From the UHGV virus genome UHGV-0180765: a DNA stretch of 14,508 nucleotides; one strand, given 5' to 3'. Positions 1 through 14,508 of this stretch are shown piece after piece; the first letter of the stretch is position 1; every line of letters starts with the position of its first letter. The notes under the pieces are model-generated. The model was not told where the DNA came from, did no database searches, and saw nothing but the letters and a program-made list of their open reading frames with translations. The position numbers were made by a program, and so were the translations under genes. The DNA is from a virus.

Positions 1-27
1 ACTTATCCTTCTGCGCGGTTTTCGTGT

Positions 28-585
28 CTATACGATGCATGGATTACTCCGGATACCGCCAATCACCAGCCTGCCGTGCGGGTCGTCGTAAGCCAGTGCC
101 TGCTGCTGACCGAGTATTTTGTTGATTACCTCAATCACCGTTTCACCGTGATCAGGCTGAACATCAGGAATAACACCCGACGGCGCACCGCTGTTCACCA
201 CCTCAATGCCGAAAGGCGCAGCAAGCGCCTGCGCAATCTGCACCAGCGAGCGTCCGTTAAACTGTGTCGGTTCGGCTGCACAGTCAATCAGGTCAGCCGT
301 CAGACTACGTCCGGCAATACCGGTGCTGACCGAACGGGAATCGTAACGAACGGGCGTCGCCTCCACCCAGCCGGTGATCACCAGCTCATCACCAATCAGC
401 ACTTCCACTTTTGAACCGTTTTTAATGCGCGGCTGAAGCGTGGTGATACCCTCATCTCCCGGCCACTGGCGGGTGATCTCCACACTGAAATCCCGCGCCA
501 GCCGTTCAATACCGGCACCGATGCGCACCGATGTCCAGCCATTCCACTCCCGGCCATTTACCCGTAGCGTGACATTGTCGTTCAT
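28..585 (-). CDS. putative phage tail/baseplate protein (possibly a short or truncated Mu P / P2 gpD-like hub); assignment weak
   Basis: 185-aa ORF whose ATG (583-585) overlaps the stop of the upstream 507-aa ORF (ATGA coupling). Composition and gene order suggest a tail-module protein. It ends at a stop 27 nt from the window edge, much shorter than hub proteins of this family, so it may be frameshifted or truncated. No alignment was possible. Confidence 0.3.
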   Translation of the reverse strand: MNDNVTLRVNGREWNGWTSVRIGAGIERLARDFSVEITRQWPGDEGITTLQPRIKNGSKVEVLIGDELVITGWVEATPVRYDSRSVSTGIAGRSLTADLIDCAAEPTQFNGRSLVQIAQALAAPFGIEVVNSGAPSGVIPDVQPDHGETVIEVINKILGQQQALAYDDPHGRLVIGGIRSNPCIV

Positions 586-2105
586 TGCACTGGCACCTTC
601 AGAGGGATCACCGGCACAAAGCCGGGATGCGTAATGGCATTACGCCGGATAATGTCCGCGTCACGCGCCGCGTTATCAAACCAGGTCGCCGCCAGCACCA
701 GCGCGGGTAAAACCTCATCCGGTGTGCGCTGAATGATCCGTGCAGACTGTTCAAGGCGCGTGTTGATATCCGCATTCAGATCTGCTTTCACCCGGCGCAG
801 CGCCAGAAACAGCGCATCGCTGGTTGTACGGGACAACTCCTTATCAATTGCCGTATTCAGTGTGTCGCGAATGTCAGTCAGTTCTTCCCACGTCGGCAGG
901 TCAACCGTGTTTTTCACCGCCGGTGCATTGTTCAGTGCCGGATGCGTGACGGAAGGCCAGCCAGTGCTCTGCGCGGGTGTTGTTGCCTGCCCCACTGCGG
1001 AATTCTGCATCACCGCGGAAGTTGTTGGCGCAGGCAATCGGGTGACGGCATACGCCGCTTCGCTGATTGCGGTCGTACGAAGGGTGCTGGCAACCACGTT
1101 ACGCTGCTGCGTCGCCGTGGCGGTGGTTTTACTGTCCGTTTTCCAGACGCCGCGCGGTTGCAGATCGCTGCCGAGGCTGACACCGGAAAGCGTTTTGATC
1201 ATGGTGACCAGGTCGCTGGCGTTACCATAAAGGCGTTTCCCGGTACGCCACATTTTCTGCACCTGCTCAACGAAATTTTTGCCTGACGATGGCGGCGGCA
1301 GAAGTACCGAGATATCCCCCTGCAACAGCCTGGCGGCATCCGATACGGCAGAATCCACCACTTTCATCGCATCAGAAACATACCCAAGCATTGTGCTGGC
1401 ATTACCGATAACGTCGTTCTGCACGAAATCCGCCACACCATCGATACTGAAACCGCTGAAGCTGTCACTGATGCGGTCATCCAGTGCAGAACAGGATGAC
1501 ATCAGCGTCTGCGCCGTCGCCGCACCTGATGTGGGGTAAGAGAGTTCTCCTGCTTCGACAAACTTCAGGTCAAAGCGGACAATACGCCCTTCACTTTTCG
1601 ATGTGCTGACCCGAACTTCCCCGTCAACACAGACTTTCAGCTCACCATATGTCGGGTGGACAAGCGTGCCGGGACCGGGTTTATTCAGCGCTTCAATCAG
1701 GCGATCGCGCTGGTCAAAGCAGTCATCTCCCACCACATAAGCTGTGATGGACGGGCGGAAAGTGACTTTTCCCAGATCTTCGGTATGGCGTAACGACTGG
1801 ATAGTGGTGATATCACCGGTTACGACATCAACCAGGTCTTTGGTTTCATAACCGAGATATGTGTGTTTGAGAGCATCTTTTACCCAAGCTGGAGTGGCGA
1901 ACGTTTTACCCCTGCTGATGAGGTATTCACTGATTTCGCTGTACCACATGTGGCTGAGTGCATTCTGGGAAAGACTGCGTCTCTCGCGCCACGGTTTAAG
2001 CACCATGCGAAAGCATTTGCCGTCCTCCAGATAAGGCTGGATCTGCCGACCGATAGCGGTGAAGTTACCGCGATGCAATTTGATACCATCTTGTGGGAGG
2101 TTCAC
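582..2105 (-). CDS. putative Mu gp N-like DNA circulation / tail assembly protein
   Basis: 507-aa ORF with GTG start at 2105 preceded by GGAGGTG (RBS); Ser/Thr/Ala-rich central region; translationally coupled to the downstream 185-aa ORF. Size and gene order resemble the Mu N-P pair found in Mu-like tail modules of SfV-type phages. Family call is from memory and synteny only. Confidence 0.4.
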
Positions 2106-2380
2106 GCTTCACCTCCGCAGAGGTCAAACGTTGGATGCAAGATATCGCAGGTGCATTTCTGCATCTGTGACTGGTTGAAAGGTGTTCTGATTGTCGTTTG
2201 CACTTTGAGTCCCCTCAAAGCGCAGAAGTCACCGGAGTTGTTCAGGCTCCGATGACATGATTATGGCGAGTTGATTATGATGAATCAATAGGTTCTTATG
2301 TCAAATGGACACTAGATCCAAAGGAGGGTAACAATTATCATAGCCAATGAGATTAATCTCATTTTTAATAAGGAAATTTC

Positions 2381-3799
2381 ATGAAATATTTCTCAACTGG
2401 TTTTTATGTTTCAAACTCCACATCTCTAGCTGAGATCTTTAATGAATGTTTTTCTTGGGTAAACGACTCACCACATACAACTTTTATTCCAGCACAATTA
2501 GTATGTGATTATAAAAGCGAGGAGTACTTCATAGAGTCTAAAAATGAAAGAATTGATATAATAACTTATAAAAACAAAGATACTAGTTTAGGCTGTTTTA
2601 GGTATTCGAAAATATCTGAGCCACACAAATGGGTAACAGATATTTCAATTAATAAAAATCTCAAAACTGATACCATGTGGATTCAGGTGGAATCTAGCGT
2701 TGTAAGCCAAGATGCAGCTTATCTAGCCCCGCAACCTAAGAAACCATTAGTTGTTATGAGATTGATTGATAAATTTCCTGGTGGTCTTGATGATATTTTC
2801 AAGGTGTCAGTCGAACCTCATTCCTTAGATGATACTGATGAACATTTAAATATAGCAGCTAAAGTTATAAATGGTGAAACTGACAACAGACTACCAATAA
2901 TATACGTTAGCTCCAAGTATTTTTTTAATGAACATGCTCACAATATCATCCCAGAACGCCTTGCAAGAAAGGTATGCGGATTAGCACATGTATTAATTGA
3001 GCCTAGCAATAGACTATTTTCTATTAAGCTAAAAAATGAGACAAATGCTAAAAATGCCTATGCTGGTGCTGTTGGTATCTATTGGCCACGGGGTCAAAAT
3101 ATCAGTTTTTATCGCCGTGGTGAGAAAACCGCAAAAGAATTTGAAGATGAGTTATTTGATGATGTTGTAAGAGCTACGACTACAATGGCTCCTGTCTCAG
3201 ATAGTGGATGGAGTGAGATACAAACCAGAAAAACGAAAGACTCTATTAACTCACTCAAAGAAAGAGGAGAATACACACGCGAACTGATGGCGCTTTACGA
3301 AGCCGATAATGTTGCGAAAGATGACCAAATAGAAGATCTTAAGCATAAGATCTCCTCTTTAGAGCACAGAGTACGCACTCTTCAATCACAAGCTTCAGCC
3401 CAAGGAAGCATTGCGCTTAATGCTGGTGAAGAGACTGACTTTTTTGATGGAGAAATCAAAAATATAATTATTGACGCACTAAAAACTGCCATAAAAAATA
3501 AAAATGAATTTGGTAGAAGCTACCATATCTTATCATCCCTAATTGCCAATAATGAATACAATAAAGAAACCGAGAGTCGCCGCCAATTACTTAAAAGGAC
3601 TTTAACAGGTTACAGAAGCATGGATAGCGCAACACAAAGAAATTTAAAGGACTTAGGTTTCAGTGCGTCAAGCGATGGAAAACACTGGAAGTTAACATAT
3701 AATGAAGACCCTCGATATTCCTATATTTTACCTAAAACAGGAAGTGACCACAGAGGTTCTTTAAATGCTATCTCGGATATAGCAAATATTATTTTCTAA
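2381..3799 (+). CDS. hypothetical protein, low-GC orphan gene (function unknown; candidate accessory/defence cargo)
   Basis: 472-aa ORF with AAGGAAA RBS 4-5 nt before ATG 2381. Strongly AT-rich relative to the flanking lambda-like genes (by eye, not computed). Opposite strand to both flanking operons. Predicted coiled-coil segment in the middle (LKHKISSLEHRVRTLQSQ). No family recognised. Confidence 0.7.
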   Translation: MKYFSTGFYVSNSTSLAEIFNECFSWVNDSPHTTFIPAQLVCDYKSEEYFIESKNERIDIITYKNKDTSLGCFRYSKISEPHKWVTDISINKNLKTDTMWIQVESSVVSQDAAYLAPQPKKPLVVMRLIDKFPGGLDDIFKVSVEPHSLDDTDEHLNIAAKVINGETDNRLPIIYVSSKYFFNEHAHNIIPERLARKVCGLAHVLIEPSNRLFSIKLKNETNAKNAYAGAVGIYWPRGQNISFYRRGEKTAKEFEDELFDDVVRATTTMAPVSDSGWSEIQTRKTKDSINSLKERGEYTRELMALYEADNVAKDDQIEDLKHKISSLEHRVRTLQSQASAQGSIALNAGEETDFFDGEIKNIIIDALKTAIKNKNEFGRSYHILSSLIANNEYNKETESRRQLLKRTLTGYRSMDSATQRNLKDLGFSASSDGKHWKLTYNEDPRYSYILPKTGSDHRGSLNAISDIANIIF

Positions 3800-3806
3800 T
3801 AAATTT

Positions 3807-3834
3807 CAATAGCACTCACAAATGAGTGCTATTG
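3807..3834. terminator. strong hairpin between convergent genes (putative bidirectional terminator)
   Basis: Inverted repeat caatagcactca / tgagtgctattg with 4-nt loop (caaa), 12 nt after the stop of the 472-aa ORF and 17 nt from the stop of the convergent 84-aa ORF. T-tracts on both sides are weak. Confidence 0.5.
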
Positions 3835-3850
3835 TTGCCACTGAATTATT

Positions 3851-4105
3851 CTATTTAAATTCAACTTTTATCCCTTTGTTTAGCAGGGCATCAGAAACTG
3901 CCTTTTTTGTAACATTTATCCCTGCAAGCAATGCTTTATGCATTGGTCCCTTAAAAATCTCTACTTCTTCTTCAGTGAGTTTAGGCAATGTAATATAAAT
4001 AACATCTTTCATCTGCTTGTTTTTATAGCATGAGCTTCTTGTGTGCTTACAATCGATATTTTCTTTATTTCCCAAAACATCATCCCCTTTATAATTCAGT
4101 TCCAC
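3851..4105 (-). CDS. hypothetical small protein (AT-rich), doubtful
   Basis: 84-aa ORF from GTG 4105 with no obvious RBS; an internal ATG at 4012 (53-aa product) has only a weak RBS. It lies in the low-GC island directly downstream of ren in the pR-direction transcript. Coding status uncertain. Confidence 0.3.
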   Translation of the reverse strand: MELNYKGDDVLGNKENIDCKHTRSSCYKNKQMKDVIYITLPKLTEEEVEIFKGPMHKALLAGINVTKKAVSDALLNKGIKVEFK

Positions 4106-4169
4106 ACATCAATTATTTAGTTATCACGAATGTCGTAAAACTAAAATTAGTAACAATAATTGCTCATAC

Positions 4170-4457
4170 CTACCCTCTTCCATATAAAGCCAACACCCGC
4201 TTCATCGCGGCACTTTGACGACACTCCTTAAAAATCAGATTCGTGCTCACCTTTCCTTCCCGTTCTTCTCTGGTAGCGAACCGGTAATACACCGTTCGCC
4301 AGACCTTACCATCAACGACCAGGATTCCTGCCCGCGCCATTTTAGCCGCAGCCTGATTTATGCTGGTTACGGTTGCGCCTGTTACCGCGGCAACGTCCTG
4401 CGCACAGAAGTTCTTATGAGTCCCCAGGTAATGAATAATTGCCTCTTTGCCCGTCAT
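4170..4457 (-). CDS. ren: Ren protein (lambda Ren family)
   Basis: 95-aa product MTGKEAIIHYLGTHKNFCAQDVAAVTGATVTSINQAAAKMARAG... matches lambda Ren as I recall it over essentially its full length. Its start overlaps the P stop (ATGA), as in lambda. Confidence 0.85.
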   Translation of the reverse strand: MTGKEAIIHYLGTHKNFCAQDVAAVTGATVTSINQAAAKMARAGILVVDGKVWRTVYYRFATREEREGKVSTNLIFKECRQSAAMKRVLALYGRG

Positions 4458-5155
4458 ACACTTGCTCCTTTCAGCCCAAACTTCGCTTTGATTTCTGCGA
4501 TCTTCGCCAGAGACTGAACACGATTAAGCGGTCTCCCGCCCATAACAGGAAGTTGTTTTACTGGTTCCGGTATCGCCTCACCACGGTTAATTCGCGCTGT
4601 CATACAGGCCAGTTCATCGGCAGCCTTGCGCCGTAATTCCGCATCAGTCAGCGCATTGGCCCGCATGTTCTGATACAGGTTGGTAACCAGCCAGTAGTGC
4701 GCGTTTGATTTCCACGGATAAGACTCTGCATCCGGATACAGGCCACGTTTCCGGCAATACTCGTAAACCATATCAACCAGCTCGCTGGCGTTTGGCAGCC
4801 CGGCGGTAACGGATGCTTCTTCCCGGCACCAGGCAACAAACTGCCCGGGTGATGGCAGGAATGGTCGATTCTGCCGACGGGCTACGCGCATTCCTGCGTT
4901 AACCTGTTCCATCGTGGTGATCCCGTTTTCCCGGAAAGCCAGAACCCACTGGCGGCGGATTTCGTTCAGTTCGTTCTGGTCCCGGTTAGCCAGGCTCGCC
5001 GGGAAAGTTGCCAGTAACTGGCTGAACACACCATTGATGATCTGCGCTACCTGTTGTACCTGCGGCTTTTCGTCGTACTGTTCCGGCATGTTGTTGGCGA
5101 TCCGGCGCATCTGCTCACGGTCAAAGTTAACCATCTGTGCGGCGATGTTTTTCAT
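4454..5155 (-). CDS. P: replication protein P (DnaB helicase loader)
   Basis: 233-aa product MKNIAAQMVNFDREQMRRIANNMPEQYDEKPQVQQVAQIINGVF... matches lambda P as recalled, at the same length. Its start overlaps the O stop (ATGA). Confidence 0.9.
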   Translation of the reverse strand: MKNIAAQMVNFDREQMRRIANNMPEQYDEKPQVQQVAQIINGVFSQLLATFPASLANRDQNELNEIRRQWVLAFRENGITTMEQVNAGMRVARRQNRPFLPSPGQFVAWCREEASVTAGLPNASELVDMVYEYCRKRGLYPDAESYPWKSNAHYWLVTNLYQNMRANALTDAELRRKAADELACMTARINRGEAIPEPVKQLPVMGGRPLNRVQSLAKIAEIKAKFGLKGASV

Positions 5156-6081
5156 AAATCCACCCCGTAAATCCAGTCAGTGTTTGTCAGGTCGAGTTTT
5201 GATTTTCCGGCTGTCACGCCAGCCTGTTGCTTGTTACGGTTGATTTCGAGTTGGGTCCACTTGTCGCGGAGTTTGGCCGGACTTAGCACGTTACCGGACC
5301 AGAAGTTGTCCTGGCATGCCCAGCGGAACAGCACGCACATGTCGCGGTGGTTACGGCCGTCACGTTCACGCATCAGGCGGATATCGTTAGCCCACCCTGC
5401 AAAATTCGGTTTTCTGGCTGATGGCGCGATGGTCTTCACCATGTCAAACATCCACTCTGCGGCGGTCAGGTCTTCTGCTGTCCCCCACTTGCTGCCACTC
5501 TGAATTGCAGCATCCGGTTTAACCACAGGAAGATCGTCTTCTGGTTGGTCAGAGGATTCGCCAGAATTCTCGGACGAAAAAGGTTTTATATTGTCTTTTG
5601 TTAGTTTGTCTTTTGTGTTTACCTGATTCGGGTAAACGCCTTTACCTGATTTGGGTAAACTTTTCTTACCTGATTCAGGTAAATTTACCTCTTTCAGGTA
5701 AACTTTATTTTTCTTACCTGATTCGGGTAATGTTGACCATTCACTGACCACATTATTAATGCCTATATTCCGCCCGCTCTGAATAAAAATCCCACGCTTT
5801 ACCAGAGCACTTTTTGCAGCAGAACACTTGTGCGGCAATATCCCGGTCAACTCGGAAAGTTGCTCGTTGCTCACCCAATCCAGTTTTTTATTAAAGCCAT
5901 ATGTTTTGCGCATGACAGCCAGGAAGACCAGAAGCTGGTGCTGTGTTAATCCGGCCAGCATTACAGCTTCCAGCAACTCATTTGCAATGCGCGTATAACC
6001 ATCATCGAGATCTGCCACGCGCGGCTCCTTTTGTGCCGCATCCGGCACAGGAAAATTGAATATCTCAGCAGTGTTTGCCAT
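5152..6081 (-). CDS. O: replication initiator O (hybrid: non-lambda N-terminal iteron-binding domain, lambda-like C-terminal P-interaction domain)
   Basis: Start placed at ATG 6079-6081, preceded by GGAGG plus 4 nt; the N-terminus MANTAEIFNF... parallels lambda O MTNTAKILNF.... The C-terminal half (SSENSGESSDQPEDDL...WIYGVDL) matches lambda O as recalled. The ori iterons lie inside the gene. The ORF track's longer start at 6171 is less likely. Confidence 0.85.
   Translation of the reverse strand: MANTAEIFNFPVPDAAQKEPRVADLDDGYTRIANELLEAVMLAGLTQHQLLVFLAVMRKTYGFNKKLDWVSNEQLSELTGILPHKCSAAKSALVKRGIFIQSGRNIGINNVVSEWSTLPESGKKNKVYLKEVNLPESGKKSLPKSGKGVYPNQVNTKDKLTKDNIKPFSSENSGESSDQPEDDLPVVKPDAAIQSGSKWGTAEDLTAAEWMFDMVKTIAPSARKPNFAGWANDIRLMRERDGRNHRDMCVLFRWACQDNFWSGNVLSPAKLRDKWTQLEINRNKQQAGVTAGKSKLDLTNTDWIYGVDL
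5618..5732. repeat. replication origin iterons (five ~19-bp direct repeats) with adjacent T-rich tract
   Basis: Five copies of TTACCTGATTCGGGTAA-like repeats starting near 5618, 5641, 5666, 5685 and 5714, each internally palindromic (TTACC...GGTAA). They are followed at 5591-5617 by a duplicated ttgtcttttg T-rich tract. Located inside the O linker region, as lambda ori is. Confidence 0.75.
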
Positions 6082-6167
6082 AATTCCTCCCGCAATGAGT
6101 GTGTTACGATTTGCACCTGAAAGTCGGTTCTGTTCCCGCAGACCGACTTTCGCCATTTTTGAACCTG

Positions 6168-6707
6168 TCATATTGCCCCCAACATGGTGGTAACCATCGC
6201 CATCAATGGACCAGCCAGATCCGGGTCCACACGAAACATCGACACAATACCTTCACTCATCTCCTTCAGTTTCTGGTGGCGTGGTGCGTTGAGAATGACA
6301 GCCTGTTTTGCCTCACTGAGTTCCTTTTCCATTTCAGCCAACCGAGTCATGAAGCTATCCTGCTCAACCAGGTAACCGCGATATTCCAGCGGTAGTACCG
6401 CCAGAATTGCCGGGGTCAGTTCACGCACGTTATTTCGGTATTTTTCAGAATCGAATTTGTTATCGAGGAAGCGGAACAGCTTCTGGCGTGCACGGCTGAC
6501 ATCATCAGGGAAATCGATGGTGCCGCCGCCCTGCTCCCGATACTCATTCACAATGAGTGCGGCAACAACATCCTGATTATCTGCAGCCGACCAGGCGCGG
6601 ACGGCATCACGGATTTTTTCGTGGCCTGGCACCTGTTTTGTTTGAGAACGATTTATCACCGCAGTCGGGCTAAATCCGCTAGTCTGTTGGTATGTAAGTG
6701 GTTGCAT
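6168..6707 (-). CDS. YdaT-like protein (CII-position regulator)
   Basis: 179-aa ORF with AAGGAG RBS 6 nt before ATG 6707. Lies between the cro-like gene and O, where cII sits in lambda. Motifs EYREQGGG and TPAILAVLPLEYR resemble the Rac prophage YdaT family as I recall it. Family call is from memory. Confidence 0.5.
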   Translation of the reverse strand: MQPLTYQQTSGFSPTAVINRSQTKQVPGHEKIRDAVRAWSAADNQDVVAALIVNEYREQGGGTIDFPDDVSRARQKLFRFLDNKFDSEKYRNNVRELTPAILAVLPLEYRGYLVEQDSFMTRLAEMEKELSEAKQAVILNAPRHQKLKEMSEGIVSMFRVDPDLAGPLMAMVTTMLGAI

Positions 6708-6752
6708 AATTGACTCCTTTAGTTTGAATTGACTGTTAAGTTGATTGCTTAT

Positions 6753-6765
6753 TGTTAAAGAGCGT
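6753..6765 (-). promoter_or_regulatory. boxA-like element (nutR-type) downstream of the cro-like gene
   Basis: The minus strand reads CGCTCTTTAACAA, the boxA consensus, 12 nt after the cro-like stop codon, where nutR sits in lambda. No convincing boxB hairpin was found next to it. Confidence 0.45.
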
Positions 6766-6776
6766 GAAATGGAAAT

Positions 6777-7007
6777 TTAAGCTGCGTTCTTTTCGGTGTG
6801 TGGAAACAACTTCGGAAGATCCGGGCGAATCTGGTATGCCTTCACTACTCCACCAGTAGCCGTAACAATGCTGCCGACATGTTCAGGGGATACCTTTGCT
6901 TTGTTGTGAAGCCACTTATAGACGGCCTGCTGTGAAACTTCGCAGGCAGCGCCCAGTTTCTTTTGTGAACCAACGATATTGATCGCTGTTTTGATAGCTG
7001 GGTTCAT
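6777..7007 (-). CDS. Cro/YdaS-family helix-turn-helix regulator
   Basis: 76-aa ORF with GGAGG RBS 5 nt before ATG 7007; an HTH-like segment (GSQKKLGAACEVSQQAVYKW); divergent from the CI-like repressor gene across an operator region. Confidence 0.6.
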   Translation of the reverse strand: MNPAIKTAINIVGSQKKLGAACEVSQQAVYKWLHNKAKVSPEHVGSIVTATGGVVKAYQIRPDLPKLFPHTEKNAA

Positions 7008-7111
7008 AACAACCTCCGTGGTTAATTCGAATCAAGATTAAAACTATGGTTGTTTTTAGTCAACAACCATTTTCGTTTGATAGAATAAAACCTTGGTTGT
7101 ACATTTGGACT
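7008..7111. promoter_or_regulatory. oR-type operator region with divergent pR (minus) and pRM (plus) promoters
   Basis: Perfect inverted repeat ATGGTTGTT-7nt-AACAACCAT at 7046-7070, plus further TGGTTGT/ACAACCA half-sites at 7008-7014, 7019-7025 (degenerate) and 7094-7100. Candidate pRM: -35 TTGATA 7077-7082, 17-nt spacer, -10 TACATT 7100-7105, placing the transcript start at or next to the cI ATG (leaderless, as for lambda pRM). Candidate pR on the minus strand: -35 TTGACT (plus 7058-7063) and -10 TTTAAT (plus 7037-7042). Confidence 0.6.
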
Positions 7112-7801
7112 ATGAAAACAACACTCTCAGAAAGACTTAAAGAAGCCAGATTAGCGCGAGGCCTTACACAAAAGGCGCTTGGGGATTTGGTCGGGGTTAG
7201 CCAAGCTGCTATTCAGAAAATCGAAACAGGGAAAGCTAACCAAACAACTAAAATCGTGGAGATCGCGAACGCTTTGGGTGTGCGCGCAGAATGGTTATCT
7301 TCTGGCGTTGGAAATATGTCAGACAGTACAGTGCAACCAATACCATCAACTGTCAGCCATTCCAAATACTTTAAGATTGACGTTCTTGATATAGAAGTGA
7401 GTGCCGGGCCGGGAGTCATCAACCGTGAGTTTGTAGAAGTTCTACGCTCGGTTGAGTACTCGTTTGACGATGCTCGTCACATGTTCGATGGTAGGAAGGC
7501 AGAAAATATCCGCATCATTAACGTACGCGGTGACAGCATGTCAGGAACGATCGAACCAGGTGATCTGCTGTTCGTTGATATCACGGTTAAATCTTTCGAC
7601 GGTGATGGCATCTATGCGTTTCTGTACGACGACACCGCCCATGTAAAGCGCCTGCAAATGATGAAGGATAAGCTGCTGGTTATCTCTGATAACAAGAGCT
7701 ACTCACCGTGGGACCCGATCGAGAAAGACGAGATGAACCGGGTGTTTATCTTCGGGAAAGTTATTGGGAGCATGCCGCAAACATATAGGAAGCATGGTTA
7801 G
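7112..7801 (+). CDS. CI-type prophage repressor (XRE HTH + S24 LexA-like autopeptidase domain)
   Basis: 229-aa product from ATG 7112 (MKTTLSERLKEARLARGLTQKALGDLVGVSQAAIQKIE...). N-terminal HTH; C-terminal S24 motifs GDSM (Ser nucleophile) and VKRL (Lys). The upstream extension to 7046 in the ORF track is spurious, as its ATG is part of the operator palindrome. Confidence 0.85.
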   Translation: MKTTLSERLKEARLARGLTQKALGDLVGVSQAAIQKIETGKANQTTKIVEIANALGVRAEWLSSGVGNMSDSTVQPIPSTVSHSKYFKIDVLDIEVSAGPGVINREFVEVLRSVEYSFDDARHMFDGRKAENIRIINVRGDSMSGTIEPGDLLFVDITVKSFDGDGIYAFLYDDTAHVKRLQMMKDKLLVISDNKSYSPWDPIEKDEMNRVFIFGKVIGSMPQTYRKHG

Positions 7802-7872: not shown

Positions 7873-8784
7873 ATGAGCCATCAGTCCGCCCACCAACAAG
7901 AAATGTCTTTATTTCCTGTAAAAGAAGTTGAAGTAAACGGTGTACAAATGGGTGTTCTCAATGATGGAACTCCATTTTTGAGTCTCCGTGGATTATCTAG
8001 GTTATGTGGGGTCGATCACACCACACTTTTACCTCTCACCACCAACTGGTCAATAGAAAAGAATAAACCCAGAGGAAGGAGAATTGCGGAGCTTCTTTCA
8101 GAGAATGGTTTTAAAGGTGATCAATTATATTCCGTTGTCGGCGGAGGCGCATTTGGTGATACACATGCCTATCCAGATGCCGTATGCATGGCAATTCTTG
8201 AATATTATGCTTTCGATGCCACACAGGTTGATAGCACTATAGCCAGGAAAAATTACCGCCTATTAGCACGTCAAACACTTCGAGACTATATATACAAAAG
8301 TGTAGGTATTGACCCGAGAAATCCAATTAGTGGCGCCTGGAAATGTTTTCAAGAGCGAATATTGCTTAATGACAAAATTCCTGCAGGTTTCTTCAGTGTT
8401 TTTAGAGAGATGGTCGATATCACAGTTCCACTTATCAATGCAGGATTTGAGCTTGGCCCAAAAACAGTACCTGATATTAGTGTGGGTGGACGATGGGCAA
8501 TCCACTGGAAGAAAAACAATCTTAGTGAAAAATATGGCGATGTGAAAAAATATCCACATGAATATCCAGATTGGTTTCCTCAAAGTAAAGCAGGAAAAGT
8601 TCCTGCCAATATTTATCCGGAAGAGGCTTTAGGTGAATTTCGCAGATGGCTAAGAGAAGAATACATTCCAAAGGGTTTCAAAGATTATCTTGCTGATAAA
8701 GTTCAGCAGAAAGTAATTGAAAATACTAAGGCTATTGAAGTTTTAGAAAATTTGCAGCGCCCAAATCTCCCTAAGGCTCGTTAA
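7873..8784 (+). CDS. hypothetical protein encoded between repressor and pL (rexAB-equivalent position); function unknown
   Basis: 303-aa ORF, AT-rich relative to cI (by eye), followed by its own intrinsic terminator. The N-terminal ~60 residues (LFPVKEVEVNGVQMGVLNDGTPFLSLRGLSRLCGV) loosely resemble the pattern of Bro-N/ORF6N-type phage DNA-binding domains; this is an impression, not an alignment. C-terminus is Tyr/Trp/Pro-rich. Confidence 0.7.
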   Translation: MSHQSAHQQEMSLFPVKEVEVNGVQMGVLNDGTPFLSLRGLSRLCGVDHTTLLPLTTNWSIEKNKPRGRRIAELLSENGFKGDQLYSVVGGGAFGDTHAYPDAVCMAILEYYAFDATQVDSTIARKNYRLLARQTLRDYIYKSVGIDPRNPISGAWKCFQERILLNDKIPAGFFSVFREMVDITVPLINAGFELGPKTVPDISVGGRWAIHWKKNNLSEKYGDVKKYPHEYPDWFPQSKAGKVPANIYPEEALGEFRRWLREEYIPKGFKDYLADKVQQKVIENTKAIEVLENLQRPNLPKAR

Positions 8785-9262: not shown

Positions 9263-9469
9263 ATGGTTCATCAACATTACGGAACGCAGACCGTTAATCG
9301 AGGTGCGGTCATGCCAGGAATGCTGGTCAAACACAAAGATGGTACCTGGACTGCATCAGCTAATTTACGCGGACGGCTATATCTGCATCGCGGCATCGAG
9401 CGCACTTATACCCGTGATTTGCTCGTGGAAGTTTTTCTCGACGGACGCGGTAACGGCCTGAATCACTAA
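9263..9469 (+). CDS. hypothetical small protein upstream of gam (kil/cIII position); may be the C-terminal part of a longer N-like ORF
   Basis: ATG 9263 is preceded by AGGAG plus 5 nt; 68 aa. The same frame is open back to 9059 (TTG), with GTG at 9092, giving an Arg-rich N-terminus (RGVRGVKRTRERR). Start choice and identity unresolved. Confidence 0.35.
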
Positions 9470-9544
9470 TCCCCTTTCCTGTTTTCCTAATCAGCCTGGC
9501 ATTTCGCGGGCGATATTTTCACAGCCATTTTCAGGAGTTCAGCC

Positions 9545-9841
9545 ATGAACGCTTATTACATTCAGGATCGTCTTGAGGCTCAGAGCTGGGCACGTCACTA
9601 CCAGCTGATCGCCCGTGAAGAGAAAGAGGCAGAACTGGCAGACGACATGGAAAAAGGTCTTCCACAGCACCTGTTTGAATCACTCTGCATCGATCATTTG
9701 CAACGCCACGGGGCCAGCAAAAAAGCCATTACTCGTGCATTTGATGACGATGTTGAGTTTCAGGAGCGTATGGCAGAACACATCCGGTACATGGTTGAAA
9801 CCATTGCTCACCACCAGGTTGATATTGATTCAGAGGTATAA
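9545..9841 (+). CDS. gam: Gam (RecBCD inhibitor), short form
   Basis: 98-aa product [44 protein letters not shown]... matches lambda GamS as recalled. RBS AGGAG upstream. The GamL extension is interrupted by in-frame stops. Confidence 0.9.
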
Positions 9842-9846
9842 AGCGG

Positions 9847-10632
9847 ATGAGTACAGCACTCGCAACGCTGGCAGGGAAGCTGGCTGAACGTGTCGGCATG
9901 GATTCTGTCGACCCACAGGAACTGATCACCACTCTTCGCCAGACGGCATTTAAAGGTGATGCCAGCGATGCGCAGTTCATCGCATTGTTGATCGTCGCCA
10001 ACCAGTACGGCCTTAATCCGTGGACGAAAGAAATTTACGCCTTCCCTGATAAGCAGAACGGCATCGTTCCGGTGGTGGGCGTTGATGGCTGGTCCCGCAT
10101 CATCAATGAAAACCAGCAGTTTGATGGCATGGACTTTGAGCAGGACAATGAATCCTGTACATGCCGGATTTACCGCAAGGACCGTAATCATCCGATCTGC
10201 GTTACCGAATGGATGGATGAATGCCGCCGCGAACCATTCAAAACTCGCGAAGGCAGAGAAATCACGGGGCCGTGGCAGTCGCATCCCAAACGGATGTTAC
10301 GGCATAAAGCCATGATTCAGTGTGCCCGTCTGGCCTTCGGATTTGCTGGTATCTATGACAAGGATGAAGCCGAGCGCATTGTCGAAAATACTGCATACAC
10401 TGCAGAACGTCAGCCAGAACGCGACATCACTCCGGTTAACGATGAAACCATGCAGGAGATTAACACTCTGCTGATCGCCCTGGATAAAACATGGGATGAC
10501 GACTTATTGCCGCTCTGTTCCCAGATATTTCGCCGCGACATTCGTGCATCGTCAGAACTGACACAGGCCGAAGCAGTGAAAGCTCTTGGATTCCTGAAAC
10601 AAAAAGCCACTGAGCAGAAGGTGGCAGCATGA
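9847..10632 (+). CDS. bet: Bet (Red-beta single-strand annealing protein)
   Basis: 261-aa product [44 protein letters not shown]... matches lambda Bet as recalled along its full length. Confidence 0.95.
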
Positions 10633-11309
10633 CACCGGACATTATCCTGCAGCGTACCGGGATCGACGTGAGAGCTGTCGAGCAGGGGGATGATGCGTGG
10701 CACAAATTACGGCTCGGCGTCATCACCGCTTCAGAAGTTCACAATGTGATAGCAAAACCCCGCTCCGGAAAAAAGTGGCCTGACATGAAAATGTCCTACT
10801 TCCACACCCTGCTGGCTGAGGTTTGCACCGGTGTGGCTCCGGAAGTTAATGCTAAGGCGCTGGCATGGGGAAAACAGTACGAGAACGACGCCAGAACTCT
10901 GTTTGAATTCACTTCCGGCGTGAATGTTACTGAATCCCCGATCATCTATCGCGACGAAAGTATGCGTACCGCCTGCTCTCCCGATGGTTTATGCAGTGAC
11001 GGCAATGGCCTTGAGCTGAAATGCCCGTTTACCTCCCGGGATTTCATGAAATTCCGGCTCGGTGGTTTCGAGGCCATAAAGTCGGCTTACATGGCCCAGG
11101 TGCAGTACAGCATGTGGGTGACGCGAAAAGATGCCTGGTACTTTGCCAACTATGACCCACGAATGAAGCGTGAAGGCCTGCATTATGTCGTGGTTGAGCG
11201 GGATGAAAAGTACATGGCGAATTTTGACGAGATGGTGCCGGAGTTCATCGAAAAAATGGACGAGGCACTGGCTGAAATTGGTTTTGTATTTGGGGAGCAA
11301 TGGCGATGA
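10629..11309 (+). CDS. exo: Exo (Red-alpha 5'-3' exonuclease)
   Basis: 226-aa product [50 protein letters not shown]... matches lambda Exo as recalled. Start overlaps the bet stop (ATGA). Confidence 0.95.
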
Positions 11310-11464
11310 AGCATCCTCGCGATAATATCCGGGTAGGCGCGATCACTTTCATCTACTCCGTTACAAAGCGAGGCTGGGTATTTCCCGGCCTTTCTGTTAT
11401 CAGAAATCCACTGAAAGCACAGCGGCTGGCTGAGGAGATAAATAATAAACGGGAGAGTGTATGA
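11306..11464 (+). CDS. small hypothetical protein (52 aa), translationally coupled between exo and the downstream gene
   Basis: Not in the ORF track (too short). ATG 11306 overlaps the exo stop (ATGA) and its stop overlaps the next gene's ATG (ATGA at 11461-11464). Product [52 protein letters not shown]. Occupies the position of lambda orf60a. Confidence 0.45.
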
Positions 11465-12213
11465 TTCATTTTCACGGTGGTCCAATAACTCCCGATACCT
11501 GTGCGTTGAAAGCCTGGAAAGGCAGACACGCATTCATCAGTTTTGCTAATCCAGCTCAGATTGATCTGGCTTCCGAAGTCACCCAATCATTTGCTCTTGA
11601 TAATGGTGCATTCACATTCTGGACAAAAAACAAGGCCGTAGACTGGAATGAATATTACAGATTTGTTGAACGCTGGGGTAATCACCCTCGTTTCTCATTC
11701 GCGGTTATCCCGGATGTTATCGGCGGAACCAGTGAAGAGAATGACGCCCTGATTGCGGCATGGCCTCACGGTAAATTTATTGGTGCTCCGGTGTGGCACA
11801 TGAACGAACCAGATGAGCGATTTATTCGTCTGTGCCATGAGTTTCCCCGCGTCTGCATCGGCTCGATGGGGGAATACGATGCAAAACGACCGAGAGCGTG
11901 TCGGGCTAAACTACGCGATCTTATACGTCATGTTGTAGATCAGTACGGCTACCCAATCACCAAGATTCATGGGTTACGGATGTTAAATAAAGACATTTTT
12001 ACTCATGTACCGCTTTCGTCTGCAGACAGCACGAACGTCGCAAGAAATATAGGCATCGACAAATCCTGGGTAGGTTCGCCATATGCTCCCGCAAGTAAAG
12101 AAACCCGTACGCAAGTTCTTGTGGAACGCATTGAATCATTCAACAGTGCCAGTTCACTTAATTACAACGCTGAACGGGACGTCTTTACCCCTCAACTGGC
12201 ATTCGAAGTGTGA
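11461..12213 (+). CDS. TGT-superfamily (tRNA-guanine transglycosylase-like) protein; candidate DpdA-like DNA transglycosylase
   Basis: 250-aa ORF with GGGAGAG RBS. Four segments, in the order seen in tRNA-guanine transglycosylases, resemble conserved TGT motifs as I recall them: LDNGAF (cf. TDSGGFQ, catalytic Asp), VIGGTSEEN (cf. VQGGMYENL), CIGSMGE (cf. AIGGLSVGE), ADSTNVARNIG (cf. FDCVMPTRNARNG, second catalytic Asp). No CxCxxC...H zinc cluster visible. Not confirmed by alignment. Confidence 0.6.
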   Translation: MIHFHGGPITPDTCALKAWKGRHAFISFANPAQIDLASEVTQSFALDNGAFTFWTKNKAVDWNEYYRFVERWGNHPRFSFAVIPDVIGGTSEENDALIAAWPHGKFIGAPVWHMNEPDERFIRLCHEFPRVCIGSMGEYDAKRPRACRAKLRDLIRHVVDQYGYPITKIHGLRMLNKDIFTHVPLSSADSTNVARNIGIDKSWVGSPYAPASKETRTQVLVERIESFNSASSLNYNAERDVFTPQLAFEV

Positions 12214-12220
12214 GGCCAAT

Positions 12221-12436
12221 ATGACAATAGAACATAATAACGCCCTTCGCAGCATAGCCCGTCAGGCTAATTCTGAAATCAAAAAAGCCAGACAGCAGTT
12301 TCCGGATAAAAACGTCGATGACATTTGCCGTAGCGTACTGAAGAAGCACCGCGAAACGGTAACGCTGATGGGATTCACACCGACTCATTTAAGCCTGGCG
12401 ATCGGCATGTTAAACGGCGTCTTTAAGGAGCGATGA
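12221..12436 (+). CDS. hypothetical small protein (71 aa)
   Basis: ATG 12221 is 5 nt after GAGG and 8 nt after the stop of the preceding gene. The longer track ORF from 12083 overlaps the upstream gene in another frame and is less likely. Confidence 0.5.
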   Translation: MTIEHNNALRSIARQANSEIKKARQQFPDKNVDDICRSVLKKHRETVTLMGFTPTHLSLAIGMLNGVFKER

Positions 12437-12458
12437 ACATGAAAAGCAAAATCATCAG

Positions 12459-12480
12459 GGAGCTACAGGCTCCTTTTTTA
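12459..12480 (+). terminator. intrinsic terminator within the early-left operon
   Basis: Stem GGAGC (12459-12463), loop tacag, stem GCTCC (12469-12473), followed by TTTTTTATT. Lies between the 71-aa gene and the TraR-like gene. Confidence 0.5.
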
Positions 12481-12534
12481 TTATTCGCATTCACCCTCAA
12501 GCGTATTAACCAACAATTCAGGGATTAATGGAAG

Positions 12535-12753
12535 ATGGCAGACATCATTGATTCAGCATCAGAAATCGAAGAATTACAGCGCAATACAGCAATAAAAATG
12601 CGTCGTCTGAACCACCAGGTTATATCTGCCACTCATTGTTGTGAGTGTGGCGATCCCATAGATGAACGAAGACGCCTGGCCGTTCAGGGTTGTCGGACTT
12701 GTGCAAGTTGCCAGGAGGAGATCGAACTTAAGAACAAACAATGGGGATTGTGA
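12535..12753 (+). CDS. TraR/DksA-family C4 zinc-finger protein
   Basis: 72-aa product with CCECGDPI...(x17)...CRTCASC, the CxxC-x17-CxxC arrangement of TraR/DksA-type small phage/plasmid proteins. Confidence 0.7.
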   Translation: MADIIDSASEIEELQRNTAIKMRRLNHQVISATHCCECGDPIDERRRLAVQGCRTCASCQEEIELKNKQWGL

Positions 12754-12800
12754 TGGCCTCAAAGCAGCAAATTTCAACATCGTCCAACTGAGGTGTAAAA

Positions 12801-13079
12801 ATGTTCAGAATCATTTTTCCTAACACCTGGTACATCGACCACCACGGCACTCCCTGCAAAATCCTGCGTTCTACCCACAACAAAGTTCACTACATCCGAA
12901 AAGGCAGAACATGTATCGCCAGCATGTTCCGCTTTAATCATGACTTTGAACCTGTGAATAAAGCTGATGCAGATCGGATAGCAGAAGAGATCGAAACGGC
13001 AGAACACATTAAGAAGTTACGTGACATGCGTTCAAAAAGCAGAGGTAACCATGGAATCATACAGCCTCACACTCGATGA
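12801..13079 (+). CDS. hypothetical protein (ea-region, upstream of xis)
   Basis: 92-aa ORF with GAGG RBS 8 nt before ATG 12801; its end overlaps the xis start by 29 nt in another frame. Confidence 0.5.
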   Translation: MFRIIFPNTWYIDHHGTPCKILRSTHNKVHYIRKGRTCIASMFRFNHDFEPVNKADADRIAEEIETAEHIKKLRDMRSKSRGNHGIIQPHTR

Positions 13080-13401
13080 GGCCTGTCAGTTTCTCAAGAT
13101 ATCCAGACCTACCGCTACCAACTGGATACGAACAGGCCGCCTACAGGCAACACGCAAAGACCCCACTAAACTAAAATCTCCTTACCTCACAACACGACAA
13201 GCCTGCATTGCGGCGCTTCAGTCTCCGCTGCATACTGTCCAGGTGAGCGCGGGTGATGGCATAACAGAGGAAAGAAAATGTCACTCTTCCGCAGAGGTGA
13301 AATATGGTACGCCAGTTTCACATTGCCGAACGGTAAAAGATTTAAACAGTCTCTTGGAACAAAGGACAAAAGGCAGGCGACAGAGCTCCATGACAAGCTA
13401 A
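13051..13401 (+). CDS. xis: excisionase (P22 Xis type)
   Basis: 116-aa product from ATG 13051 ([38 protein letters not shown]...) resembles P22 Xis as recalled; its 3' part overlaps the int start. Confidence 0.8.
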
Positions 13402-14441
13402 AGGCTGAAGCATGGCGGGTCAGCAAACTTGGTGAAATACCTGATATGACGTTCGAGGAGGCGTGTATCAGGTGGCTCGAAGAGAAAGCACATAAAAAAT
13501 CACTGGACGATGACAAAAGCCGGATCGGATTCTGGCTTCAACATTTCGCAGGAATGCAACTAAGAGACATTACTGAATCAAAAATTTATTCAGCAATGCA
13601 GAAAATGACGAACCGGCGTCATGAGGAAAACTGGAAACTCAGGGCAGAAGCATGCAGAAAAAAAGGGAAACCTGTTCCAGAATACACGCCAAAACCAGCG
13701 TCCGTTGCAACGAAGGCTACGCATCTTTCATTTATAAAGGCCCTACTAAGAGCCGCAGAGCGTGAATGGAAAATGCTGGATAAGGCACCAATTATTAAAG
13801 TGCCTCAACCAAAGAATAAACGGATCCGCTGGCTGGAGCCCCATGAAGCACAAAGGCTGATTGATGAATGTCCGGAGCCATTAAAGTCTGTTGTTGAATT
13901 TGCACTGGCAACAGGCTTAAGACGCTCGAACATCATCAACCTTGAATGGCAACAAATAGATATGCAGCGCCGGGTGGCATGGATAAACCCGGAAGAGAGT
14001 AAATCAAACCGCGCAATCGGCGTTGCGCTGAATGATACTGCATGTCGCGTTTTGAAAAAACAAATCGGGAATCATCACCGTTGGGTATTTGTGTACAAGG
14101 AAAGCTGTACCAAACCAGACGGAACGAAAGCGCCAACAGTAAGGAAGATGCGGTATGACGCAAACACAGCCTGGAAAGCGGCGCTGAGACGGGCTGGTAT
14201 TGATGATTTCAGATTTCACGACTTGAGACACACCTGGGCAAGTTGGCTGGTTCAAGCCGGAGTCCCGTTGTCAGTGTTACAGGAAATGGGAGGCTGGGAG
14301 TCTATCGAAATGGTTCGTCGATATGCTCACCTTGCACCTAATCACCTTACCGAACACGCACGGCAAATAGACTCGATCCTGAACCCATCGGTCCCAAATT
14401 TGTCCCAGTCAAAAAATAAGGAAGGTACTAATGATGTGTAA
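13278..14441 (+). CDS. int: tyrosine integrase (P22 Int type)
   Basis: 387-aa product [47 protein letters not shown]... with tyrosine-recombinase motifs near the C-terminus ([17 protein letters not shown]). Resembles P22 Int as recalled. RBS AGAGGA upstream. Transcribed toward the tRNA 14 nt beyond its stop. Confidence 0.95.
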
Positions 14442-14455
14442 CTTATTGATTTAAA

Positions 14456-14508
14456 TGGTGCCGATAATAGGAGTCGAACCTACGACCTTCGCATTACGAA
14501 TGCGCTGC
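14456..14508 (-). tRNA. thrW: tRNA-Thr (anticodon CGU), 3' 53 nt only; continues beyond the window
   Basis: The reverse complement of the window end reads ...GCGCATTCGTAATGCGAAGGTCGTAGGTTCGACTCCTATTATCGGCACCA: anticodon loop TTCGTAA (anticodon CGT), T-arm GTAGG-TTCGACT-CCTAT, acceptor 3' strand, discriminator A and CCA. The 3' end points toward int, the usual att arrangement. Confidence 0.8.

Follow-up and report, generated by a model that had tools for sequence, protein, structure and literature searches.

The virus genome UHGV-0180765, of which a stretch of 14,508 nucleotides (nt) was analyzed (here called the window), raises the question of what a 507-amino acid (aa) open reading frame (ORF) is that seems to belong to two phage protein families at once. 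An original prediction, made from the letters of the sequence, had wavered between a Mu N-like tail protein and an unusual NinB-domain fusion, citing an RSLSQN segment resembling lambda NinB, a length well beyond that of NinB, ren upstream, and a tail-like gene downstream. These observations are borne out: the likeness to NinB is real, as remote homology (PHROG 72, NF007281, with the Orf core residues kept), as is the excess length; ren does lie upstream; and the downstream gene is a tail gene, for a baseplate hub of the Mu P type (PF21683 and PF22255). Each of the two readings holds for part of the protein. The tail-protein reading fits residues 109-507, but residues 1-108 are of NinB type and the first 43 residues of N are absent; the fusion reading rightly places NinB/YbcN in residues 1-108, but the join is a deletion scar rather than an evolved architecture, since the halves match intact parents (100% for ybcN, 97.5-98.8% for N) and meet at a 5-nt microhomology. 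Neither a full-length alignment to N-family proteins nor a NinB-only reading was obtained. At the protein level the ORF is YbcN(1-108) joined in frame to N(44-442), and very probably it is a fusion pseudogene from prophage decay, created by a deletion of ~17-20 kb. Its parts and their immediate surroundings are as follows:

582-2105, minus strand: the chimeric ORF ybcN'::'N, 507 aa, with a GTG start (ORF list, PHROG, Pfam)
1782-2105, minus strand: ybcN-derived part, codons 1-108 of 151, of the phage 82 orf151 / DLP12 ybcN type (JS01 match, NF007281, alignment)
582-1786, minus strand: N-derived part, codons 44-442 of the SfV orf15 / SfI gp17 type (DNA matches, parent translation, PDB search)
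1782-1786, minus strand: deletion junction 1, a 5-nt microhomology (ATACC) common to both parents (three-way alignment, overlapping BLAST ends, native continuations)
2106-2380, minus strand: upstream region of ybcN, an orf33 remnant and a stretch with putative -35/-10 sequences and a regulator-binding repeat, according to the annotation of the phage 82 record (92.9% match to X92588)

The RSLSQN segment (residues 43-48, within the stretch 39-54) is the conserved Orf/NinB motif, though the homology is remote: pairwise alignment puts it opposite RSLDQN of lambda NinB (Orf residues 41-46). The conserved core of the Orf family is R41, Q45, N46, and W50 in lambda, the last being Trp or His (PMC4118853), and their counterparts in the 507-aa ORF, when it is aligned with lambda NinB, are R43, Q47, N48, and H52. 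Residues 1-108 are 100% identical to intact YbcN, a NinB homologue of 151 aa; the PHROG 72 "NinB/Orf recombination mediator" profile matches residues 1-116 (E = 1e-31), and the NCBIfam profile NF007281 (PRK09741, the YbcN subfamily) matches residues 1-113 over positions 1-113 of 151, with 187 bits against a cut-off of 164 bits. YbcN of DLP12 and phage 82 has been established as a diverged yet genuine member of the Orf family, by PSI-BLAST and biochemistry, and binds single-stranded DNA (ssDNA) and the single-stranded DNA-binding protein SSB (Curtis et al., 2014; PMC4118853). By its sequence, then, the N-terminal part belongs to the YbcN branch of the Orf/NinB family.

A Pfam search alone would have missed this. 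With the whole protein, DNA_circ_N is the sole family reported at E ≤ 0.01, and the NinB family (PF05772) stays below threshold for the ORF fragment (E = 0.039), as it does for intact YbcN (E = 4e-4, 20.6 bits vs. 23.8); this is expected, because the YbcN branch has diverged (PMC4118853). A direct BLASTP comparison with lambda NinB is likewise not significant (E = 0.29, 23% identity), and a phmmer search of the PDB with residues 1-113 gave nothing at E ≤ 10, the lambda Orf structure being too distant for that method. Taken by themselves, the Pfam and BLASTP results would suit a Mu-N-like tail protein of the ordinary kind, whose divergent extension at the N-terminus resembled NinB by chance. 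We give this almost no credence: residues 1-108 are YbcN, by the NF007281 and PHROG 72 scores above, and the DNA upstream of position 1786 runs into a lambda-type ren-P-O module rather than into a tape-measure gene.

The YbcN part is incomplete. Orf/NinB proteins are single domains of ~130-160 aa with C-terminal helices; here the similarity runs only to residue 108 of the 151 in YbcN, and the 43 lost residues align with the C-terminal helices of lambda Orf, of which the C-terminal helix contributes to DNA binding (PMC4118853). Like YbcN of DLP12 and orf151 of phage 82, the ORF keeps the position after ren and the R-x3-Q-N…H core, which lines the Orf dimer channel; unlike them, it stops at residue 108 of 151 and carries 399 foreign residues. 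The truncated gene occupies the nin position, in the order O-P-ren-(cargo)-ybcN' also found in the prophage of E. coli JS01 and in phage 82, with O-P-ren upstream of it and, likewise upstream, a cargo gene in the opposite orientation. In JS01 the stretch equivalent to window positions 2106-2380 is annotated as a partial gene of hypothetical product.

The other 399 residues come from a tail gene. Window positions 53-1786 match SfV, SfI, SfII, SfIV, and E. coli prophages at 97.5-98.8% DNA identity, in genes annotated as "DNA circularization" and baseplate hub, and residues 109-507 are ~98-99% identical to N-like proteins of E. coli and Shigella prophages. PHROG 184 (baseplate hub, Mu N type) matches residues 107-505 over positions 44-408 of 411, PHROG 17109 is matched along its whole length (positions 1-204 of 204), and phmmer against the PDB finds the Mu N entry 9ki1 (E = 5e-5; query residue 5 aligned to chain residue 62, and on to 485 of 495). 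By these three matches the helix-rich C-terminal domain homologous to Mu N is present. The N-terminal domain is not whole: PF07157 (DNA_circ_N) covers residues 106-158 but only profile positions 36-88 of 88, the absent residues 1-43 of the parent corresponding to positions 1-35. Mu gp43 (N) is a hexameric tail-tube initiator in which a tube-like N-terminal domain builds a 24-stranded β-barrel and the helix-rich/LysM domain contacts the wedges (PMC11915804). The genomic partners of an N gene are missing as well, with no tape-measure gene upstream, no tube or sheath gene at the locus, and a truncated hub gene downstream. The C-terminal part thus belongs to the Mu N/gp43 family but is without part of its defining N-terminal domain and without its partners. 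It resembles Mu gp43, SfV orf15, and SfI gp17 in aligning to the C-terminus of Mu N and in being followed by a gp44/P-type hub gene, as in Mu and SfV; it differs from them in that the first 43 residues of the β-barrel domain are gone, no tape-measure gene precedes it, and the hub gene after it is truncated.

The two parents meet abruptly, and their nucleotide sequences place the domain boundary with greater precision than a structural model would. At junction 1, ybcN reads …CGCC-ATACC-TCCGAT and N reads …CCCT-ATACC-GAAGAT, and matches in the 5426 complete E. coli genomes searched form two sets that abut at window positions 1782-1786. On the ybcN side, positions 1782-7500 are 99.98% identical to a lambda-like prophage of E. 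coli JS01, where the 151-codon ybcN is intact and followed by ninE-ybcO-rusA-ylcG-quuD. None of these genomes, and none of 50,697 phage records, spans the junction, and a junction 39-mer is absent from the GTDB species representatives; the exact 507-aa protein is present on four metagenome or Logan contigs, the largest of 33 kb.

Since the window is part of a MEGAHIT metagenome contig (k119_594, 15,029 bp, ENA sample ERZ19693231), the join might be a chimeric assembly of reads from two prophages. This is highly unlikely, because an overlap of 5 nt cannot mislead an assembler working at k = 119. Furthermore, the contig was seen in three samples, the protein recurs in Logan assemblies on the 33-kb contig, and junctions of the same kind occur in the closed genome LR-46 as well as in assemblies from isolates.

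How the two halves came together is suggested by the rest of the prophage, whose other landmarks are:

1-40, minus strand: first 13 codons (ATG at 40) of a short tail-fibre gene, cut by the window edge (100% match to SfI 16916-16970 and SfV 16656-16710)
28-585, minus strand: truncated Mu-P/gp44-type baseplate hub, a 185-aa ORF with 178 of 359 native residues, then seven read-through residues (RSNPCIV) and a stop (PF21683 and PF22255 only, 359-aa relatives, comparison within the protein cluster)
53-55, minus strand: deletion junction 2, a TAT microhomology; hub codon 178 is followed directly by sequence that begins 15 nt ahead of the short tail-fibre gene (alignment, BLAST vs. SfI and SfV)
4170-6171, minus strand: ren, P, and O replication module upstream of ybcN', in the same rightward (pR) direction (Pfam Phage_lambda_P and Phage_rep_O, JS01 annotation)
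13278-14501, plus strand: P22/SfV-type integrase (387 aa) followed by a 46-bp att core (14456-14501), the left end of the prophage (SfI match)

Window positions 9463-14501 match SfI 26268-21231 at 98.1% identity, ending exactly at the annotated attP core (21231-21276). The SfI genome (NC_027339) is laid out as int-xis-exo-bet-gam…cI-cro-cII-O-P-ren-ninB…Q-lysis, followed by a late module of terminase-head-sheath-tube-tape measure-N-P-V-W-J-fibres-gtr-attP, and the BEN5202 prophage has the same architecture. The ninB and N-like genes of SfI stand in the same order and orientation as the two halves in the window, separated by ~16.9 kb in SfI coordinates. The window is therefore collinear with an SfI-type prophage at the thrW, or P22/SfV-type, att site, and the prophage is defective, with no Q, lysis, head, sheath, tube, or tape-measure genes.

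The same collinearity bears on whether the junction might have been made between two prophages of one chromosome, or with incoming phage DNA. Such an origin would fit the lack of any single reference having both modules, the best match to the ybcN module being in the JS01 prophage, which is lambda-tailed and at attLambda, and that to the tail module in SfV-like phages; both kinds of prophage are often found in one E. coli genome. We consider it unlikely all the same. The integrase/att end and the exo-bet-gam region are SfI-like (98.1%), gene order and orientation are exactly those of one SfI-type prophage, and a deletion between distant loci would take hundreds of kb of chromosome with it. Lambdoid early modules exchange freely, so that a ybcN-type nin region in an SfI-like phage is unremarkable.

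Phages of the SfI/SfV/e14 type have early genes like those of lambda, a head of the HK97 kind, and a contractile tail like that of Mu. The locus would have started as a temperate phage of this type, integrated at a P22/SfV-type att site. Illegitimate recombination over ATACC would then have joined codon 108 of ybcN to codon 44 of N, with the loss of ~17-20 kb containing the remaining nin genes, Q, and the lysis, terminase, head, sheath, tube, and tape-measure genes; the join would be in frame by accident, and gene finders accordingly report a single protein of 507 aa. A second event, deleting 3.1 kb over TAT, would have halved the baseplate hub gene. This second deletion (junction 2) corresponds to the removal of SfI 13788-16915 (3128 bp), where the remainder of the hub gene lies along with homologues of V, W, J, and gp48; the tail-fibre gene beyond it continues on the contig as a 165-aa partial ORF. 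The hub truncation is found only on the contigs that carry the 507-aa ORF.

Could the fusion nevertheless have been selected, as a NinB/Orf DNA-binding domain recruited onto a Mu-N-type tail protein that binds DNA ends? The frame is kept through 507 codons, both parent proteins handle DNA, and the Orf core motif is retained. Both domains are cut within folded units, however (PF07157 begins at position 36, YbcN ends at 108 of 151), and ~98-100% identity to the unfused parents leaves no time signal of co-evolution. The same event deleted every head, sheath, tube, and lysis gene; the fusion is known from four contigs and none of the 5426 complete genomes; and the same N breakpoint is joined elsewhere to unrelated partners, in one case out of frame. 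A selected multidomain protein is thus quite improbable, and ybcN'::'N fusion pseudogene is a fitting annotation, where tail protein or NinB-domain protein is not.

Judging from what the sequence retains, the product of this pseudogene is most likely inert in both roles, because both halves are without essential parts. Being 43 residues short, it should be unable to complete the tube β-barrel, and it would have no tube, sheath, or tape measure to act with; what it would keep is the R-x3-Q-N core of Orf and, from the tube initiator, the helix-rich/LysM part. Any transcription would be that of the repressed pR early-right operon, after loss of the repressor. Lysogens express the ybcN-rusA operon poorly (PMC4118853).

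Several points weigh against a decayed, functionless fusion of this origin. The N-derived frame is uninterrupted across 399 codons, and the Orf core may retain a residual function such as SSB or ssDNA binding. SfI carries a lambda-type ninB in place of ybcN, and a parent prophage with both the exact ybcN module and the N allele was not found in the complete genomes and phage records; since this undeleted parent is missing, the origin of the junction in a single prophage is something we infer from collinearity. Finally, the N-side breakpoint is not random, and the event may not have been a plain chance deletion. As a single instance, the fusion is ordinary prophage erosion, a new example of a well-known process. 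There are analogous single-step fusions of N to other upstream genes, in prophages that are otherwise intact.

The same nucleotides of the N gene, …TA/CCGAAGATCTGGG, at codon 43/44 (the slash marks the break here and below), form one end of at least 12 independent prophage deletions whose upstream partners differ. This main endpoint is found at window positions 1782-1786 and in loci L010, L012, L014-L017, L019, and L020; a 90% protein cluster and a homologue search yielded further chimeras with the N part starting at the same residue, …/TEDLGK. The upstream partners are:

YbcN: this window
YbcO: P0004
RusA: P0005
Rz, two alleles: P0002 and P0010
large terminase (terL): P0063
major capsid protein: P0094
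sheath, at two positions: P0047 and P0045
tape measure: P0043/P0044, in the closed genome LR-46
unidentified protein: P0046
out-of-frame partner: IMG/VR contig L017

All nine junctions read at the DNA level (9/9) have the form …N-TA/CCGAAGATCTGGGAAAAGTCAC. The microhomologies at the joins are short (ATACC, TACCG, ATA, TA, or T alone), and the native sites in the partners are mostly TA(N)CC. Since every partner is located upstream of N, shares its strand, and keeps to the normal gene order, and no remainder of the partner gene was found downstream of N in the chimeric loci, the events are independent one-sided deletions of ~1.4 to ~20 kb anchored at one nucleotide; apart from the scar, the surrounding prophage is intact in each case. 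The lack of a partner remainder downstream also led us to reject the insertion of a mobile unit as an alternative to deletion. Frame-dependent ascertainment was also set aside, given the out-of-frame example.

Within the first 130 codons of N, only two in-frame fusions use positions other than the recurrent ones, and the chance of at least 11 of 19 ends falling on one codon is P ~5e-17. A second recurrent end lies 23 nt upstream, before YPNRDK (gaa/TACCCGAA), with two partners (P0012 and P0052). A third, at codon 130 (ggt/GCGGCGACGG), has four (portal, tape measure, capsid, and sheath), two of them DNA-verified. In SfV (L008) these secondary ends are at 11772-11776 and 12057; they are seen in loci L021 and L022 and in proteins P0012, P0052, P0086, P0087, P0089, and P0090. 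A single common ancestor of the right-hand segment is unlikely, because many records share its allele group (≥99% identity in 217 of 1102), one event took place on a 2%-divergent allele, and another (P0046) carries an Ile variant. Such truncated forms of N are rare in complete genomes, and a degenerate pattern for the hot spot was absent from JGI metagenome contigs and had one match in IMG/VR.

The recurrence points to a break or nick directed to a site. Tentatively, and with rather more doubt than confidence, we suggest that the N-gene end is a sequence-directed break or nick site (…CCCTA-TA/CC-GAAGATCTGGG), with a weaker twin 23 nt upstream (TA/CCCGAA) and a third site at codon 130 (GGT/GCGGCG), and that throughout E. 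coli these sites repeatedly give rise to one-sided deletions, 1.4 to ~20 kb long, by which prophages of the SfV/e14 type are inactivated. In the reading we favor, a defined DNA end would be created by nicking or breakage at a specific site, or by a roadblock to a nuclease or to replication; microhomology-mediated end joining or template switching would then attach this end to DNA lying upstream. Deletions with one fixed endpoint are familiar from the illegitimate-recombination literature, at the site-specific nicks of rolling-circle origins (M13, pC194). The N-gene deletions are like these in that one endpoint is fixed to the nucleotide while the other ends vary, and in their short, imperfect joins; they are unlike them in that neither an origin nor a nicking enzyme could be detected at the N-gene site, so that the likeness is one of pattern only. 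To our knowledge no such enzyme or origin has been described for this site.

The retained side of the hot spot contains, 9 nt in, an imperfect palindrome, GGAAAAGTCACTTTCC (window 1758-1773, minus strand). In SfV (L008) it is at 11808-11823, and the only other GGAAA-N4-8-TTTCC sequence of that genome, at 13564-13579 in the hub gene, is 35 nt beyond the left end of the second deletion of the window; ~0.2 such sites per genome are expected by chance. The N breakpoint itself has no hairpin (z = 0.03 and 0.32 for the two strands). Other candidates considered from sequence were the cos region, lambda Int arm sites, invertase sites, Chi, and a type I-E protospacer adjacent motif (PAM), none of which fits the position or the retained side.

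If the break is indeed site-directed, a nuclease or nickase encoded by phage, host, or defence system, or a roadblock to replication or an exonuclease, would be shaping prophage decay with single-nucleotide precision, and the 507-aa ORF of the window would be one product of this breakage. The recurrent breakpoint offers a testable handle on how prophages are inactivated in nature, by a specific enzyme or DNA feature or by random illegitimate recombination.

Some further observations concern the same region of the N gene and its neighbors. In complete E. coli genomes (H125-H131), some prophages have an extra gene (PH-domain, OB-fold, or hypothetical) between the tape-measure and N-like genes, shortly upstream of the hot spot. 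Intact N-like proteins (P0051, P0054, P0055, and P0056) differ by two to four tandem copies of a 14-aa unit at about residue 350, giving variants of 442-499 aa. On the partner side, nt 321-323 of ybcN were considered as a second hot spot, contigs in four independent assemblies (L024-L027) ending there, 3-5 nt before the junction position; these ends are probably assembly forks, because ybcN is intact in 2931 of the 2954 complete genomes that carry it.

Like e14, KpLE1/CPS-53, and DLP12, the prophage of the window is a mosaic that has lost morphogenesis genes through short-microhomology deletions and has kept its integrase, immunity, and cargo genes; unlike those decayed prophages, its ybcN'::'N junction is in no complete genome searched. 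Further in-frame scars are present in other SfV-like remnants (L017, 2634-3101; L016, 10201-11061; L022, 2868-3035), where the hub N-terminus is fused to V, the hub to J, and a sheath has a replaced N-terminus. Prophages of the SfV-like family seem typically to carry several small deletions.

Three other genes of the window were also noted. Between ren and ybcN, on the opposite strand to both, a 472-aa ORF (2381-3799, plus strand; guanine + cytosine content 34-39%) belongs to a cluster of 270 members and is found widely in E. coli; Pfam and NCBIfam give no match, PADLOC gives a weak one to the candidate defence family HEC-07 (E = 1e-9), and the ORF looks like a moron or defence cargo gene. A 250-aa ORF (11461-12213, plus strand) is the counterpart of SfI gp34, annotated as "queuine tRNA-ribosyltransferase"; it has no match in PADLOC and may be a DpdA-like DNA-modification gene. 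Beside the cI-like repressor, a 303-aa protein (7873-8784, plus strand) is the abortive-infection defence protein BstA (PADLOC BstA, E = 7e-122).

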